This document shows positions 10,123-21,306 of a stretch of DNA of 64,000 nucleotides, piece by piece. The position numbers and the translations under genes were made by a program. The stretch lies in sequence record MZ170040.1. One strand, written 5' to 3'. The notes beneath the pieces are model-generated. The model saw nothing but the letters and a program-made list of their open reading frames with translations, made no database searches and had not been told where the DNA came from. The first letter of the stretch is position 1. Every line of letters begins with the position of its first letter. Source of the stretch: Escherichia phage vB_EcoM_FJ1.

Positions 10123-10401
10123 TTATTCTTTAAATCTAATCAATTTATTCATAGACTTTGAAACTTCTGCACGAACCTCATGTAGATTTTTGAGCTGTTC
10201 AAGACGCTGCTCATAGTAAGCAATTTCATCTTCTTCGAGACAGTCCTGTGAATCTTCTTTAAGATAACGTGCATAGTCCTGGAAAGCTTTACGGACTACT
10301 TCCTGGAAGTCATCAAGACTTTGAATTTTCTTAGGAGCAACAGATACACGACGAGGGGCAGTATAATACTCATAACCAAACCCTGCGCTTAATTGAGCCA
10401 T
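10123..10401 (-). CDS. hypothetical small protein (~92 aa)
   Basis: Track ORF starts at GTG; trimmed to ATG overlapping upstream stop. Confidence 0.5.
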
Positions 10402-11250: not shown

Positions 11251-11580
11251 TCAATTAGAAAATAAATTTATCCAAGATTGTTCTTTGATTAAAAATGGCT
11301 CAGAATCATATGCCATTAAACTCTGTGTGATTAGTCCTTTAAAAGGCCCATCAATAAATTCCATGGTAAAATATGGAATTTTATTCATTAGCCGTGCATT
11401 AGGAGCAGTACACAAAACTCTGCATCCTTTGAATACGCCTTTTTGTAATTTGTATTGCTTAGGATAAAATTCGCTCAAGACGTTGTTATTTGCCAAAATT
11501 TCAAAATGATTCACCAATTTATTTTTAATAGTTTTTGGCGAAAAATAAAGATATTCGAAAAGCTGAGTGTCTGTCATCAT
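11251..11580 (-). CDS. hypothetical protein (109 aa)
   Basis: ORF track; ATG; overlaps upstream stop. Confidence 0.55.
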
Positions 11581-12164
11581 TGCATTCCGATTACGAAAAA
11601 CTGTGGACGAGTAATACCATCAATGCAACATTTAATATTACAGCAGCAGTGTACAGTGTCAATATGGACACTATAAATCTTATCCATATCAGGAGATTTG
11701 ACAGGCTCATCAATTATATACAAAATTCGCGAAAGCGATAAACCTCTGAACTTGCTTCCTTTATTACCAATAAAACTGCGCACAGAATCAGTAAATAAAC
11801 GAAAACGTATATCATCATTAGAATAACGCGAAAATTCCTTTTTAATGTTATTTGCAGAAATTTTAGCGTAAGCTGAAGTATTAGAAAGAACAATAACTGT
11901 TCCGCCATCATACAACCAATTAGCAGCAAAGTTAGTCACAGCAATTGATTTACCAGATTGACGTCCACCATCTAGTCGAAGTGTGCAATACTGTTTGAGT
12001 AAGTCTTCAAATGGTGGGATATAATCGTTTTTACAAATTTCTTCTACTCTAGCATCAGAATGGTGTGTAAAAGCATTCATCAGGGATAGATAAGGACCAG
12101 TTAAAAATGTTCTCATTTTGTTATCTCTAAATTTGGGCCATTCCGTGGCGCGTGAATTGTCCAT
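11577..12164 (-). CDS. P-loop-containing protein with Cys-rich C-terminus
   Basis: 195 aa; Walker A-like GGRQSGKS, Walker B-like LYIIDE, C-terminal HCCCNIKCC. Confidence 0.6.
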   Translation of the reverse strand: MDNSRATEWPKFRDNKMRTFLTGPYLSLMNAFTHHSDARVEEICKNDYIPPFEDLLKQYCTLRLDGGRQSGKSIAVTNFAANWLYDGGTVIVLSNTSAYAKISANNIKKEFSRYSNDDIRFRLFTDSVRSFIGNKGSKFRGLSLSRILYIIDEPVKSPDMDKIYSVHIDTVHCCCNIKCCIDGITRPQFFVIGMQ

Positions 12165-12269
12165 TTCTGTATTTACCCATTACCGCGCTTGGGCTCGACC
12201 TTATTACAGGTTGGCGGGAATCCCTCACAGAATCATGAGGTCCAGCTTGTTCCCATATTTCTTATTTGC

Positions 12270-12743
12270 TTATTTGAATGATTTAACGTACTGAATAGAA
12301 CCCTTACTATTCACAAAGGCAATTTTACCATTTTTATTATACATGGTAGCAGTACGCTGATAACCATAGGTTTGTTTACCAGATTGATAACCAACTAATG
12401 CAAAATTATCTTCACCCATTTTATTCTGTTTAGCGCGAATGCGTTCATGACCATGTGCCATAAGAACCTTAGCATCACCAGTTGCAATGGATCGACGAGT
12501 TTTTTCATCTTCAACTGCATTAACAAAGTCGTCAAATGAATCAAATTTAGCATGAGATTTATTATACAATTTTCCATCTACTGCATAATTATATCCCTGT
12601 ACATCCATCTCAACTTCTGTACCATCATCCAATACAGCAGTAATTTTTTGACCTTTTTTAAATTTCAAAAGATCAGTAAAAGATTCAGCAATAATTTGAG
12701 AATTAATAGCTGCTTCAGTGATAAATTCTTGATATGTTTTCAT
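12270..12743 (-). CDS. internal-protein-like (capsid-targeted) protein
   Basis: 157 aa; N-terminus MKTYQEFITEA matches T4 IP capsid-targeting sequence (MKTYQEFIAEA) incl. gp21 cleavage context; 10 nt downstream of denV. Confidence 0.75.
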   Translation of the reverse strand: MKTYQEFITEAAINSQIIAESFTDLLKFKKGQKITAVLDDGTEVEMDVQGYNYAVDGKLYNKSHAKFDSFDDFVNAVEDEKTRRSIATGDAKVLMAHGHERIRAKQNKMGEDNFALVGYQSGKQTYGYQRTATMYNKNGKIAFVNSKGSIQYVKSFK

Positions 12744-12752
12744 GGGTTTCCT

Positions 12753-13169
12753 TTAAATGTAAATATTTTTGCCGTAATACTTGTACCAGTGTGGCTTCAT
12801 TAAAATTTTTTCATCAAGTCGTTGTTGACTCAATTTAATAGCTGATTTGCATGGATTATAATCATTTTTCCATTCTATTGGAATATCGCTGATGTCAGGA
12901 ACTTCAGTATCTTTTATACTGAACCCGCGTTTTAAGCATTCCGTTATAATGTCTAATTGACGCTTTCGCAAAAATTCTAACTTATCGTAAAAGAACGTAA
13001 CATGGCCAGAACCTAAAATAAACTCGGAAGATATTTTAAAATCTTTAACGCGCTTACCGTTTGCCACATGCTTACGAACTATACCAAAAACACGCGGCAA
13101 TTCACGGTATTCTGCGATTAAATGTTGATCAGCAAGTTCAGATACTAAAGTCAAATTAATACGAGTCAT
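12753..13169 (-). CDS. denV: endonuclease V (pyrimidine-dimer DNA glycosylase)
   Basis: 138 aa; [17 protein letters not shown]...; near-identical to T4 DenV as recalled. Confidence 0.95.
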
Positions 13170-13228: not shown

Positions 13229-14197
<969 letters not shown>

Positions 14198-17660: not shown

Positions 17661-17848
17661 AAGAATGTTATTTGATTTGTTTAGCAGACCAAATGCGATC
17701 TTTAATAATTTTTTGGATGTCTTCAACATACTCTAGGTCATGAGCATGTGGATTATCTTTGAAACTATGAGCTCGCGCAAGTTTCTGGCCTTCGGTCTTA
17801 ATTATCAAAAGTTCTTTAAGAATTGCTTCATACCTAGAGATAATTCCT

Positions 17849-18142
17849 TTAGCAATATTTTTTTTCTTGTGCTGCTTTAGGGTCAGCCTTAGGAGCAGGT
17901 TTACCTGAAGCCTTTGCAAAAGCAGCTCCAGTAGCAACTAAACTTTTCCAGGCCATACTAACTGCATTTCCCGTAAATCCTTCCGCTTTCATGTCGCGTG
18001 CGAACTGGAATCGCGATTCATCGGAAGCATCTTTATAGGAATATTTACCCGCGGCAATGGCTGCTTTTGCGACAGCTTGAATTTCGGTGCTAGATGCTTC
18101 ATTTAACACCGCTTCATTTAAAAATTGAGCATATGATTTCAT
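17849..18142 (-). CDS. internal-protein-like (capsid-targeted) protein
   Basis: 97 aa; N-terminus MKSYAQFLNEA resembles IP capsid-targeting sequence; Ala/Lys-rich; minus-strand TATAAATA box upstream. Confidence 0.65.
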   Translation of the reverse strand: MKSYAQFLNEAVLNEASSTEIQAVAKAAIAAGKYSYKDASDESRFQFARDMKAEGFTGNAVSMAWKSLVATGAAFAKASGKPAPKADPKAAQEKKYC

Positions 18143-18178: not shown

Positions 18179-18186
18179 TATTTATA
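18179..18186 (-). promoter_or_regulatory. T4 late promoter box upstream of IP-like gene 17849..18142
   Basis: Exact TATAAATA on minus strand ~36 nt upstream of ATG; late expression fits a packaged internal protein. Confidence 0.5.
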
Positions 18187-18530: not shown

Positions 18531-18607
<77 letters not shown>

Positions 18608-18610
18608 TAG

Positions 18611-19276
18611 TTAAAATTTCATTTTTCGACCTTTAAACCATCCTTCTGGAATTGGGTCAGTTTTCTTAATACGTTTAGAAACTTTTTCATCTAATGAATG
18701 AATCCACATCATACCAAATTGGGAATTCTTTTCACCTTTTTGGTGATTATTTTTAGCATGAATTTCTTTCATTTTATTAATAGTTTCAAGAGTATGATGC
18801 TTATTTAAAAATCGGCTATTATTTAAAAATTTTTCTTTGTATTCAGGAGTTGACCACAAACGGTTAAATACATTTGAACCATTTTTACGATATTTTTCTT
18901 GAAGTAAAATATCATTTTTAAAACGTGACTTAAACGATTTAGCTCCTTTTAAACTAGCGTCTTTCTTCTGATTTAGCATCTCAGGAATATTTATATGATC
19001 CCATCCACCTTCACCGCCAAGTTTTAAATTATACACATCAGGTCTATTTAAAAACTCTTCTGTGACAATATTTTTCTCGGCTTCAAGCATAGATTCTTTA
19101 TCATCAAAATACTCTAATATTTCTTTAGAAAAATTTTCTATGCCATACTTATCTTGGGCTCTTTTTAATAATTTACCAGAACCCATATATCCATCATCTA
19201 AATTTTCGGTAGAATGCACACCAATATAAATTTTATTATTAATTTTATTTGTTATTTTATAAAGATAAAAATGCAT
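18611..19276 (-). CDS. segB: GIY-YIG homing endonuclease SegB
   Basis: 221 aa from ATG (MHFYLYKITN...IYIGVHS...GYMGSG); inside tRNA cluster as in T4; track ORF 5' extension overlaps a tRNA and is rejected. Confidence 0.8.
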   Translation of the reverse strand: MHFYLYKITNKINNKIYIGVHSTENLDDGYMGSGKLLKRAQDKYGIENFSKEILEYFDDKESMLEAEKNIVTEEFLNRPDVYNLKLGGEGGWDHINIPEMLNQKKDASLKGAKSFKSRFKNDILLQEKYRKNGSNVFNRLWSTPEYKEKFLNNSRFLNKHHTLETINKMKEIHAKNNHQKGEKNSQFGMMWIHSLDEKVSKRIKKTDPIPEGWFKGRKMKF

Positions 19277-19322
19277 ATCAGTCCCTAATAAAGAACTGAG
19301 CGTCTCACGACGAGTCATAAAT

Positions 19323-19409
19323 TGGTGGGGAGTGGTGGAGTCGAACCACCCGAGTCGCAATGACAATGGATTTACAGTCCACACCGCTACCTCTACGGGA
19401 TAACTCCCC
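19323..19409 (-). tRNA. class-II tRNA, anticodon GUA (tRNA-Tyr) - not part of the T4 set
   Basis: 87 nt; acceptor GGGGAGT/ACTCCCC, T-arm GGTGGTTCGACTCCACC, long variable arm, anticodon loop CTGTAAA; encoded CCA. Confidence 0.6.
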
Positions 19410-19418
19410 TAATTAATT

Positions 19419-19495
19419 TGGTGACCCAGACCAGATTTGAACTGGTAACCTTTCCCTTATGAGGGGACTGCTGCTAACCATTGAGCTACAGGGCC
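19419..19495 (-). tRNA. tRNA-Ile (anticodon CAU, lysidine-type; alternatively Met)
   Basis: Anticodon loop CTCATAA; T-loop TTCAAAT; encoded CCA; position matches T4 tRNA-Ile. Confidence 0.6.
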
Positions 19496-19496
19496 T

Positions 19497-19572
19497 TGGT
19501 GCTGATTGACGGAATCGAACCGCCGACCTTCTCATTACAAGTGAGTTGCTCTACCTACTGAGCTAAATCAGC
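19497..19572 (-). tRNA. tRNA-Thr (anticodon UGU)
   Basis: Acceptor GCTGATT/AATCAGC; anticodon loop CTTGTAA; T-loop GGTTCGATTCC; encoded CCA. Confidence 0.75.
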
Positions 19573-19574
19573 AA

Positions 19575-19661
19575 CGGAGGCGATAGGATTTGAACCTATG
19601 AGTCGCCGGAGCGACTGCCGGTTTTCAAGACCGGTGCATTAAACCACTCTGCCACGCCTCC
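19575..19661 (-). tRNA. tRNA-Ser (anticodon UGA)
   Basis: Class II; starts GGAGGCGTGGCAGAG; anticodon loop CTTGAAA; CCA not encoded. Confidence 0.75.
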
Positions 19662-19663
19662 AG

Positions 19664-19737
19664 TCTCCGTGGCAGGATTTGAACCTACGACATTCTGCTC
19701 CCAAAGCAGACGCTCTACCAAACTGAGCTACACGGAG
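19664..19737 (-). tRNA. tRNA-Pro (anticodon UGG)
   Basis: Acceptor CTCCGTG/CACGGAG; anticodon loop TTTGGGA; T-loop GGTTCAAATCC; CCA not encoded. Confidence 0.75.
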
Positions 19738-19747
19738 TAAATTAAAT

Positions 19748-19821
<74 letters not shown>

Positions 19822-19826
19822 AAATT

Positions 19827-19913
19827 TGGTGCGAGAAGTGGGACTCGAACCCACATGGAAATCATTCCGCAGCATTTTAAGTGCTGTGCCTTTACCAATT
19901 TGACCATTCTCGC
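19827..19913 (-). tRNA. tRNA-Leu (anticodon UAA)
   Basis: Class II; matches T4 tRNA-Leu as recalled (GCGAGAA...CTTAAAA...GGTTCGAGTCC...CCA). Confidence 0.85.
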
Positions 19914-19914
19914 G

Positions 19915-19987
19915 CTGGGAATAAAGGACTCGAACCTTTGCATCCTGGAATCAAAATCCAGTGCCTTACCAACTTGGCTAATTCCCA
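19915..19987 (-). tRNA. tRNA-Gln (anticodon UUG)
   Basis: Acceptor TGGGAAT/ATTCCCA; anticodon loop TTTTGAT; T-loop GGTTCGAGTCC; CCA not encoded. Confidence 0.75.
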
Positions 19988-21018: not shown

Positions 21019-21306
21019 TTACAAAAGATTTTTAGCAATAATCTTGAGATGTGCCGCAGAAATGTGTTTAGCTTTAAACAACGCAGTTTCTTCAGCAGGA
21101 GAGATAACGATTGTAGCACCATCCTTTTTAGCAGACCACCCATCACCTAGGTAAACAGTACCTTTGATTTCTTCGCCATCAACCAGACTAATCATTGGTT
21201 TACCTTCTCGTCCTTTATTTGCTTTAATAACTTCAGAAGTAAGAGTAGCCTCGGTAATGGTAGAAACCGGGGTAGTTGTAGAAGTAAATTCTTTAAATGT
21301 TTTCAT
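21019..21306 (-). CDS. internal-protein-like (capsid-targeted) protein, ipI position
   Basis: 95 aa; N-terminus MKTFKEFTS... resembles IP targeting sequence; located between tRNAs and 57B like T4 ipI; early promoter upstream. Confidence 0.6.
   Translation of the reverse strand: MKTFKEFTSTTTPVSTITEATLTSEVIKANKGREGKPMISLVDGEEIKGTVYLGDGWSAKKDGATIVISPAEETALFKAKHISAAHLKIIAKNLL

Follow-up and report, generated by a model that had tools for sequence, protein, structure and literature searches.

Among the systems described so far, the internal proteins (IPs) of bacteriophage T4 are among the closest to the gene considered here. These proteins begin with a capsid-targeting sequence (CTS), in which targeting depends on residues 4 and 7 and processing on residues 8 and 10, and they are cut by gp21, which cleaves after L/I-x-E and produces IP propeptides of 10-19 residues (PMC9026906). 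IPII and IPIII are encapsidated and, in T4, injected, and both are now known to be inhibitors of GmrSD, a type IV restriction enzyme. Each of the T4 proteins Ip1, Ip2 and Ip3 inhibits one GmrSD only, namely those of CT596, ECOR21 and ECOR17, respectively (Silas et al. 2025, PMC12373910), and the same authors propose GmrSD variants as the common target of all accessory proteins encoded at the two IP loci (PMC12373910). They also credit Repoila et al. 1994 with "at least 10" IPs found by signal sequence (PMC12373910).

The window analysed here is the whole stretch of 64,000 nucleotides from Escherichia phage vB_EcoM_FJ1 (MZ170040.1). The ip4 coding sequence occupies 12270-12743 on its minus strand (157 amino acids plus stop; ORF list, Pfam and PHROG), with the ATG at 12743 and the stop codon at 12270-12272, and it is the sole long open reading frame (ORF) in this interval. 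The translation starts with MKTYQEFITEAAINSQ (MKTYQEFITEA), and a longer stretch of the protein N-terminus reads MKTYQEFITEAAINSQIIAESF. A preliminary description of this DNA had given these coordinates, the same N-terminus and a position directly after denV, all in agreement with the ORF list, and had omitted the strand. The product can be identified with near certainty as Ip4, a named internal head protein of T2-type phages. It matches Pfam DUF7412 (PF24183) with an E-value of 9.4e-96 and 318.7 bits, above the curated cut-off of 27 bits, and residues 1-157 align to profile positions 1-158; because the whole protein fits a curated family end to end, the match is far beyond chance. A second match is to phrog_3155, "internal virion protein" (E 1e-101).

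The ip4 gene is therefore already known, with Pfam and PHROG families of its own and annotation as Ip4 in reference genomes. The existing labels are "ip4" in T2, "ipIV: IpIV internal head protein" in PP01 and "internal virion protein, Ip4" in RB68, and UniProt entry Q38388, "Ip4 [Enterobacteria phage K3]", is 98% identical over the modelled residues 21-157 in a structure search of BFVD. The preliminary description had treated the gene as an unfamiliar, divergent IP, a view that the names in K3 (Q38388), T2, PP01 and RB68 and the families DUF7412 and PHROG 3155 contradict. The Ip4 name has been in use since the 1990s and reportedly originates from Repoila et al. in 1994. A search of the main texts of the searchable literature for ip4, IpIV or DUF7412 found no functional study of Ip4 itself.

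By tblastn, ip4 homologues occur in 470 of 50,697 phage records, in Tevenvirinae genomes. The same searches give 100% identity in ES12, G157lw and RB68, 99.4% in T2, PP01, phiD1 and many others, and 68-71% in Klebsiella, Salmonella and related T4-like phages. Orthologues are found in several Tevenvirinae genera whose hosts include Klebsiella, Salmonella, Serratia, Erwinia and Proteus, and identity is at least 61% across five or more of these genera. An exhaustive profile search added three distant relatives from uncultured phages, with 35-37% identity. The Ip4 proteins of K3, T2, PP01 and RB68 are the same protein as that of vB_EcoM_FJ1, being 98-100% identical over the aligned length (for K3, residues 21-157), of the same length (156-157 amino acids) and with the same CTS, and their genes share one locus, downstream of e and upstream of vs.8.

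The first ten residues of Ip4, MKTYQEFITE (12714-12743, minus strand), form a CTS that is identical at 9 of 10 positions to that of T4 IPII and IPIII (MKTYQEFIAE) and at 6 of 10 to that of IPI (MKTFKEFTST). The earlier statement that this sequence is almost identical to the CTS of all three T4 proteins thus stands for IPII and IPIII and fails for IPI. All four key residues, Y4, F7, I8 and E10, are present, which together with the DUF7412 and phrog_3155 matches bears out the earlier reading as an internal-protein gene with a T4-type CTS and gp21 motif. M1, K2, F7 and E10 are invariant in 12 homologues, and at position 4 the family has either Y or F. The gp21 motif I8-T-E10 ends the CTS, with the predicted cut between E10 and A11; cleavage there would yield a protein of 147 amino acids with a computed mass of 16.5 kDa, a pI of 9.1 and 22 Lys+Arg.

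Beyond the CTS, the comparison with the T4 proteins changes. T4 IPII and IPIII share with Ip4 the near-identical CTS, the cleavage motif and a basic mature protein, but similarity is no longer detectable after residue ~13, and the mature sizes differ (90 amino acids for IPII and 183 for IPIII, against 147 for Ip4). BLASTP of Ip4 against IPIII (77% identity over 13 amino acids, E 4e-4) and against IPII (E 3e-6) is driven by the N-terminus in both cases. When the CTS is removed, alignment to IPI, IPII and IPIII gives no similarity (best E 0.026 in this three-sequence database), and Pfam reports DUF7412 only. Other IP PHROGs match within the first ~13-30 residues only, with the exception of a weak match to an IPI-family PHROG (E 0.0075, Ip4 residues 1-66). 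Orthology to T4 IPI, IPII or IPIII is rejected, the likeness being limited to the CTS; the preliminary description was right that the mature part does not resemble the T4 proteins, and full-length orthology to IPII or IPIII, which it had named as grounds for withdrawing its proposal, was not found.

The same phage also carries ipI, and it has neither ipII nor ipIII; T2 has none of the three. The ipI gene (21019-21306, minus strand) encodes 95 amino acids, matches PF11634 with E 7e-54 and is apparently identical to T4 IPI. Another ORF of 97 amino acids (17849-18142, minus strand) begins with the CTS-like sequence MKSYAQFLNE followed by A, and an exact late-promoter box TATAAATA (18179-18186) stands ~35 nt upstream of it. 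This ORF matches phrog_2280, "unknown function", a profile 178 positions long of which only the first 90 are matched, and 511 records contain a match, labelled "hypothetical protein" in all cases among the matches listed. Its 3' end is overlapped in another frame by an ORF of 89 amino acids (17668-17937). The 97-residue product may be a third internal protein of this phage that has so far escaped annotation. Nine tRNA genes lie at 18534-19987 on the minus strand, interrupted by a 257-amino-acid ORF (18611-19384) at the T4 segB position; the cluster and this ORF have the T4-type arrangement.

Evidence on the virion comes from an orthologue. In CsCl-purified virions of two phages, the proteins ValerieMcCarty03 gp127 and ValerieMcCarty04 gp119, both labelled "internal virion protein", were represented by 66 peptide-spectrum matches (PSMs) each (PMC13119998 Table 3). 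These counts are lower than those of the tail tube (98/106) and higher than those of the head completion protein (46/51) in the same 2026 proteome, and they are of the same order as those of the portal and tail-tube proteins (PMC13119998). The ValerieMcCarty03 protein (VMC263_127) is 70% identical to Ip4 of vB_EcoM_FJ1 over its full length, and its gene adjoins the e lysozyme gene in this Klebsiella Jiaodavirus. The preliminary description had held that absence from virions would count against it; the 70%-identical orthologue is present in them (PMC13119998).

The supplementary PSM table of ValerieMcCarty04 repeats the protein sequence in every row and was assessed by string counts, with one row read directly. 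In these counts TYQEFLNES occurs 66 times, once per row, and therefore no observed peptide of the orthologue would contain it; LATVGVMTESVGSNLLK occurs 69 times against 66 rows, and therefore the tryptic peptide 13-29 would have been seen three times. By the same counts, no peptide covering residues 1-12 is found among the 66 spectra, and the 13-29 peptide is. Within the limits of such counts, this pattern, which is indirect and short of proof, fits removal of the CTS at E10. A second L/I-x-E site, I18-A-E20 followed by S21 (12681-12692, minus strand), has an E20 that never varies in the family; P0016 and P0017, among the three relatives with 35-37% identity, keep the E-S site as "LNE-S" before the folded domain. 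According to the string counts, the tryptic peptide LATVGVMTESVGSNLLK from ValerieMcCarty04 virions spans the equivalent site; because it does so, S21 is not supported as the main mature N-terminus, and the second site, although conserved, is apparently not cut quantitatively in the orthologue. Overall, Ip4 is very probably packaged into the capsid and processed.

The genes around ip4 are transcribed in the order gene e lysozyme (13229-13723; Pfam Phage_lysozyme), denV, ip4 and vs.8. The upstream neighbour denV, for endonuclease V (12753-13169, minus strand), matches phrog_1183 (E 8e-62) and Pfam PF03013 Pyr_excise, and its stop codon is separated from the ip4 start by 9 nt. Within this spacer, the sequence AGGAAA (12747-12752, minus strand) reads as the ribosome-binding site of ip4; it abuts the denV stop codon (12753-12755) and leaves 3 nt to the ATG of ip4. 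By pattern search, the T4 late-promoter box TATAAATA occurs twice in exact form upstream of gene e (13737-13757, minus strand), and these two boxes are the closest exact matches upstream of ip4, ~1 kb away. No exact TATAAATA came up between e and ip4 in a scan that tolerated one mismatch, and a dedicated late promoter of exact sequence just upstream of ip4 is rejected on these grounds. From the placement of the boxes we infer that ip4 is transcribed late from those upstream of gene e.

On the downstream side, vs.8 (11577-12116, minus strand) was delimited by phrog_1488 (E 5e-79), the RB68 annotation and alignment; the PHROG match covers residues 19-195 of a longer ORF, and the conserved start is ATGAGAACATTT at 12116. 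Annotation of this start is inconsistent, with 219 amino acids in T4, 180 in RB68, two fragments in T2 and, mechanically, 195 here (regions 11577-12164 and 12127-12228, minus strand; 8561-9142 in L005). The vs.8 product contains a Walker-A-like motif, GGRQSGKS, and its match to phrog_2, the ATPase of the terminase large subunit, is weak (E 1e-5). The label "IpIII internal head protein" given to the vs.8 homologue in ValerieMcCarty01 and 03 appears to be mistaken.

The ipII and ipIII genes of T4, like ip4, lie in a hypervariable locus between e and vs.8, one of two such IP loci. The order is e-ipIII-ipII-denV-vs.8 in T4, with both IP genes between e and denV as the preliminary description had stated; e-ip4-vs.8 without denV in T2; e-denV-ip4-vs.8 in vB_EcoM_FJ1 and RB68; and e-ip4-ipII-vs.8 in the Klebsiella Jiaodavirus ValerieMcCarty03. 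A 170-kb T4-like, Mosigvirus-like IMG/VR contig (L007) has e-IP(132 aa)-denV-IP(99 aa)-vs.8, where the 99-residue IP also begins with MKTYQEFITEA. Compared with T4, ip4 thus lies across denV, yet in the same e-to-vs.8 variable locus. The earlier claim that its position differs from that of the T4 genes is correct as to the side of denV and does not extend to the locus; judged by gene order, the altered position is a cassette shuffle inside one hypervariable IP locus.

Traces of this shuffling are visible in the sequence itself. The 25 nt upstream of the ip4 ATG, AAAAATATTTACATTTAAAGGAAAC, match those in front of T4 ipII exactly, and denV ends with the codons for …GKNIYI-stop here against …GKAIYA-stop in T4, the change falling where the ipII-type upstream module begins. 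This identity and the altered denV end make the junction at 12744-12775 (minus strand) look like a recombination joint; the junction between the denV 3' end and the ip4 5' end was compared with positions 4719-4750 of L003. T2 ip4 differs in that it follows e directly behind an ipIII-type upstream module, its 60 upstream nt being nearly identical to those of T4 ipIII, whereas in vB_EcoM_FJ1 and RB68 denV precedes ip4 and the 25 nt are of the ipII type. All IP genes compared begin with almost the same ~20 nt of coding sequence, and several of the cassette boundaries share the motif ATTTACATTTAAA.

The other end of the variable slot is marked by a conserved structured RNA motif (12135-12255, minus strand; blastn, covariance model and covariation). 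The motif is ~120-140 nt long and pseudoknotted, begins 14 nt past the ip4 stop codon and ends before the vs.8 start, and its GC content is 53% against 36% for the window. It was found by blastn in 1004 phage records, and the covariance model scores 89.7 bits at 12135-12255. Nucleotide identity is ~95% among T4, T2 and RB68 and 82-90% in Jiaodaviruses, where Ip4 is only ~70% identical. A 44-nt core (…CCUGUAAUAAGGUCGAGCC…GCGGUAAUGG…) recurs in unrelated rV5-like Vequintaviruses, where it is 93-95% identical and lies near tRNA genes in a gap without annotation, and exact-core scans of IMG/VR and metagenomes added further sequence classes. Searches of Rfam 15 gave no match at the gathering threshold or at E<=10, and searches of E. 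coli genomes gave none either. The motif appears to be previously undescribed.

The case for a conserved structure comes from covariation, the single-sequence folding z-score being unremarkable (-0.5). The closing helix covaries through GGGAA/UUCCC, GGGAG/CUCCC, AAAGG/CCUUU, AAAGC/GCUUU, AAAGA/UCUUU, GGGG/CCCC and GGAAC/GUUCC, and the short pseudoknot through CCG/CGG, CAC/GUG, CGC/GCG and CUG/CAG. The inner hairpins have unrelated sequences in different classes, and a long irregular helix links the invariant core to the conserved GUGCCANGGAAUGGCC segment. The structure scored here was partly hand-derived from the same sequences. In the nine sequences of class B, 98.8% of cells are paired, both partners differ in six pairs, and the observed covariation score is attained by 0 of 500 shuffles. 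Across 34 model-aligned sequences of five classes, in an alignment fitted to the model, the paired share of cells is 94.5%, compared with 30-47% in slid controls, and each of the five pairs in the closing helix covaries.

In the T4 annotation (NC_000866), where it lies at positions 64,819-64,939, this stretch forms the N-terminus of vs.8. The vs.8 frame through the motif holds a stop codon here and a 1-nt insertion in L010, and RB68 vs.8 starts after the stretch; because the reading frame is not conserved, the motif is rejected as the vs.8 N-terminus. In T4-like genomes it always closes the variable IP slot, following ip4 here and in T2, denV in T4 and the 99-residue IP in L007, and it is present twice in ValerieMcCarty03, after ip4 and after ipII. 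A vs.8 leader, a processing or stability element and a stand-alone small RNA are its candidate roles. As the aligned loci are arranged, the CTS-coding sequence on the 5' side and the RNA motif on the 3' side are the conserved flanks between which IP cassettes exchange. These two brackets of the variable slot explain the swapping of IP cassettes, and the RNA motif probably merits more attention than the ip4 gene.

The mature part of Ip4 is predicted to be a folded domain. AlphaFold gave a weak model of the full-length protein (pLDDT 70.6) and a confident one of residues 21-157 (12273-12683, minus strand; pLDDT 91.5, pTM 0.86), for which 14 homologues were used, including the three distant ones from the exhaustive profile search. 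The model consists of a beta-barrel core and an inserted segment of three helices. Searching PDB sequences by profile returned nothing below E 0.5, NCBIfam only sub-threshold noise, and the BFVD structure search Ip4 of K3 (Q38388) as the only neighbour. His64 and His99 are invariant among close homologues and lost in distant ones, and this loss suits a binding protein better than a catalyst. The simplest reading of the model, which has no enzyme-like relatives, suggests that Ip4 is a compact binding protein.

What, then, does the protein do? The life history of T4 IPI* (PF11634), the inhibitor of E. coli CT596 GmrSD, comprises targeting, gp21 cleavage, packaging and injection, and by analogy the same course would be common to Ip4. 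Ip4 would be made late, probably through a read-through e-denV-ip4 late transcript, and its CTS, as the match and established T4 biology suggest, would dock it onto the prohead scaffolding core. Cleavage by gp21 after E10 at I-x-E would then free a basic protein of ~16.5 kDa, which would be retained in many copies in the mature virion, as seen for the 70%-identical orthologue, and, if it behaves like its T4 counterparts, be ejected into the cell with the DNA. There, on the hypothesis drawn from T4 Ip1-3, it would most likely bind and neutralise a host factor that attacks the incoming modified phage DNA; candidates for this factor are a GmrSD-subtype type IV restriction enzyme outside the tested set and another early-acting defence.

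We regard ip4 as probably a non-essential accessory gene of T2/RB68-type Tequatroviruses whose product is packaged, injected and most likely directed against host defence. Since Ip1-3 each block a GmrSD, an injected anti-defence role of some kind is the best guess for Ip4, and on this analogy we lean towards it. The preliminary description had put forward the same idea, which remains a reasonable one by comparison with the T4 proteins. The target is less clear. In the published screen, ip4-10 showed no reproducible inhibition of the GmrSD panel (PMC12373910 Suppl. Fig. 9), and Ip4 of this type was apparently among the genes screened; T4 IPII and IPIII are GmrSD inhibitors, and in that panel Ip4 apparently is not (PMC12373910). 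T2, which has a 99.4%-identical Ip4, is still restricted by GmrSD-ECOR21 and GmrSD-ECOR17 (PMC12373910), and it follows that Ip4 does not block these two. That Ip4 acts after injection as an inhibitor of new specificity, for a GmrSD/BrxU subtype beyond the eight active ones tested or for another class of early-acting defence, is a serious though tentative possibility, and a GmrSD subtype outside the tested panel as the target is a more doubtful one.

The same negative panel (PMC12373910) and the restriction of T2 by two GmrSDs despite ip4 could also be taken to mean that Ip4 is an injected effector against something other than GmrSD, such as a different early defence directed at DNA, a nuclease of the host (for example RecBCD) or a factor involved in host takeover. 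Orthologues serve phages of Klebsiella, Salmonella, Serratia, Erwinia and Proteus, whose DNA modifications may differ, and the adjacent vs cluster holds TadIV-1, a counter-defence gene that does not act on restriction. T4 vs.3 is this TadIV-1, an anti-Thoeris sponge that blocks type IV Thoeris (PMC13243611), and a vs.3 homologue lies at ~10123-10400 (minus strand) in the vs.3-vs.8 cluster, ~2 kb downstream of ip4, so the IP locus abuts another counter-defence gene. Against this stand the three characterised IPs of this locus type, all of which hit GmrSD, and the size of the tested set, only eight active systems of a very diverse family (PMC12373910); positive evidence for any other target is absent. 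We consider a target wholly outside GmrSD unlikely.

A different possibility is that Ip4 is mainly a structural or DNA-associated component of the head core that helps core assembly or DNA condensation, a role suggested for IPIII, and has no specific host target. Mature Ip4 is basic (pI 9.1, 22 Lys+Arg), the orthologue is abundant in virions (66 PSMs), and no GmrSD target emerged for it from the ip4-10 panel (PMC12373910). IPIII-minus and triple IP-minus T4 mutants make more aberrant polyheads (PMC9026906). The protein is also unusually conserved across genera, its gene always next to or near e; such conservation suggests more constancy than expected of an arms-race effector and leaves room for a more general role. 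However, ip4 is absent from T4 and from about half of the T4-like genomes with the RNA motif (470 against 1004 records), and therefore Ip4 cannot be required for head assembly. The gene occupies a cassette-swapping accessory slot, the same e-to-vs.8 slot that different IP cassettes fill in T4, T2, Jiaodavirus and L007, and the predicted fold is compact and globular, not that of an extended or disordered DNA-coating protein. A mainly structural role is accordingly improbable. An enzymatic function is rejected, the PDB and NCBIfam searches being negative and His64 and His99 not kept in distant homologues.

The injected anti-defence role remains the preferred reading. Now that Ip1-3 have been matched to three GmrSD subtypes, Ip4 has the widest distribution of the T-even internal proteins that lack an assigned function, and the confident structural model can guide binding studies. 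If Ip4 is indeed an inhibitor of new specificity, its fold, which has no relatives in PDB or BFVD apart from Ip4 of K3 itself, would be a new inhibitor architecture, and its broad conservation in Tevenvirinae would suggest a host target that is itself conserved and widespread in Enterobacterales.
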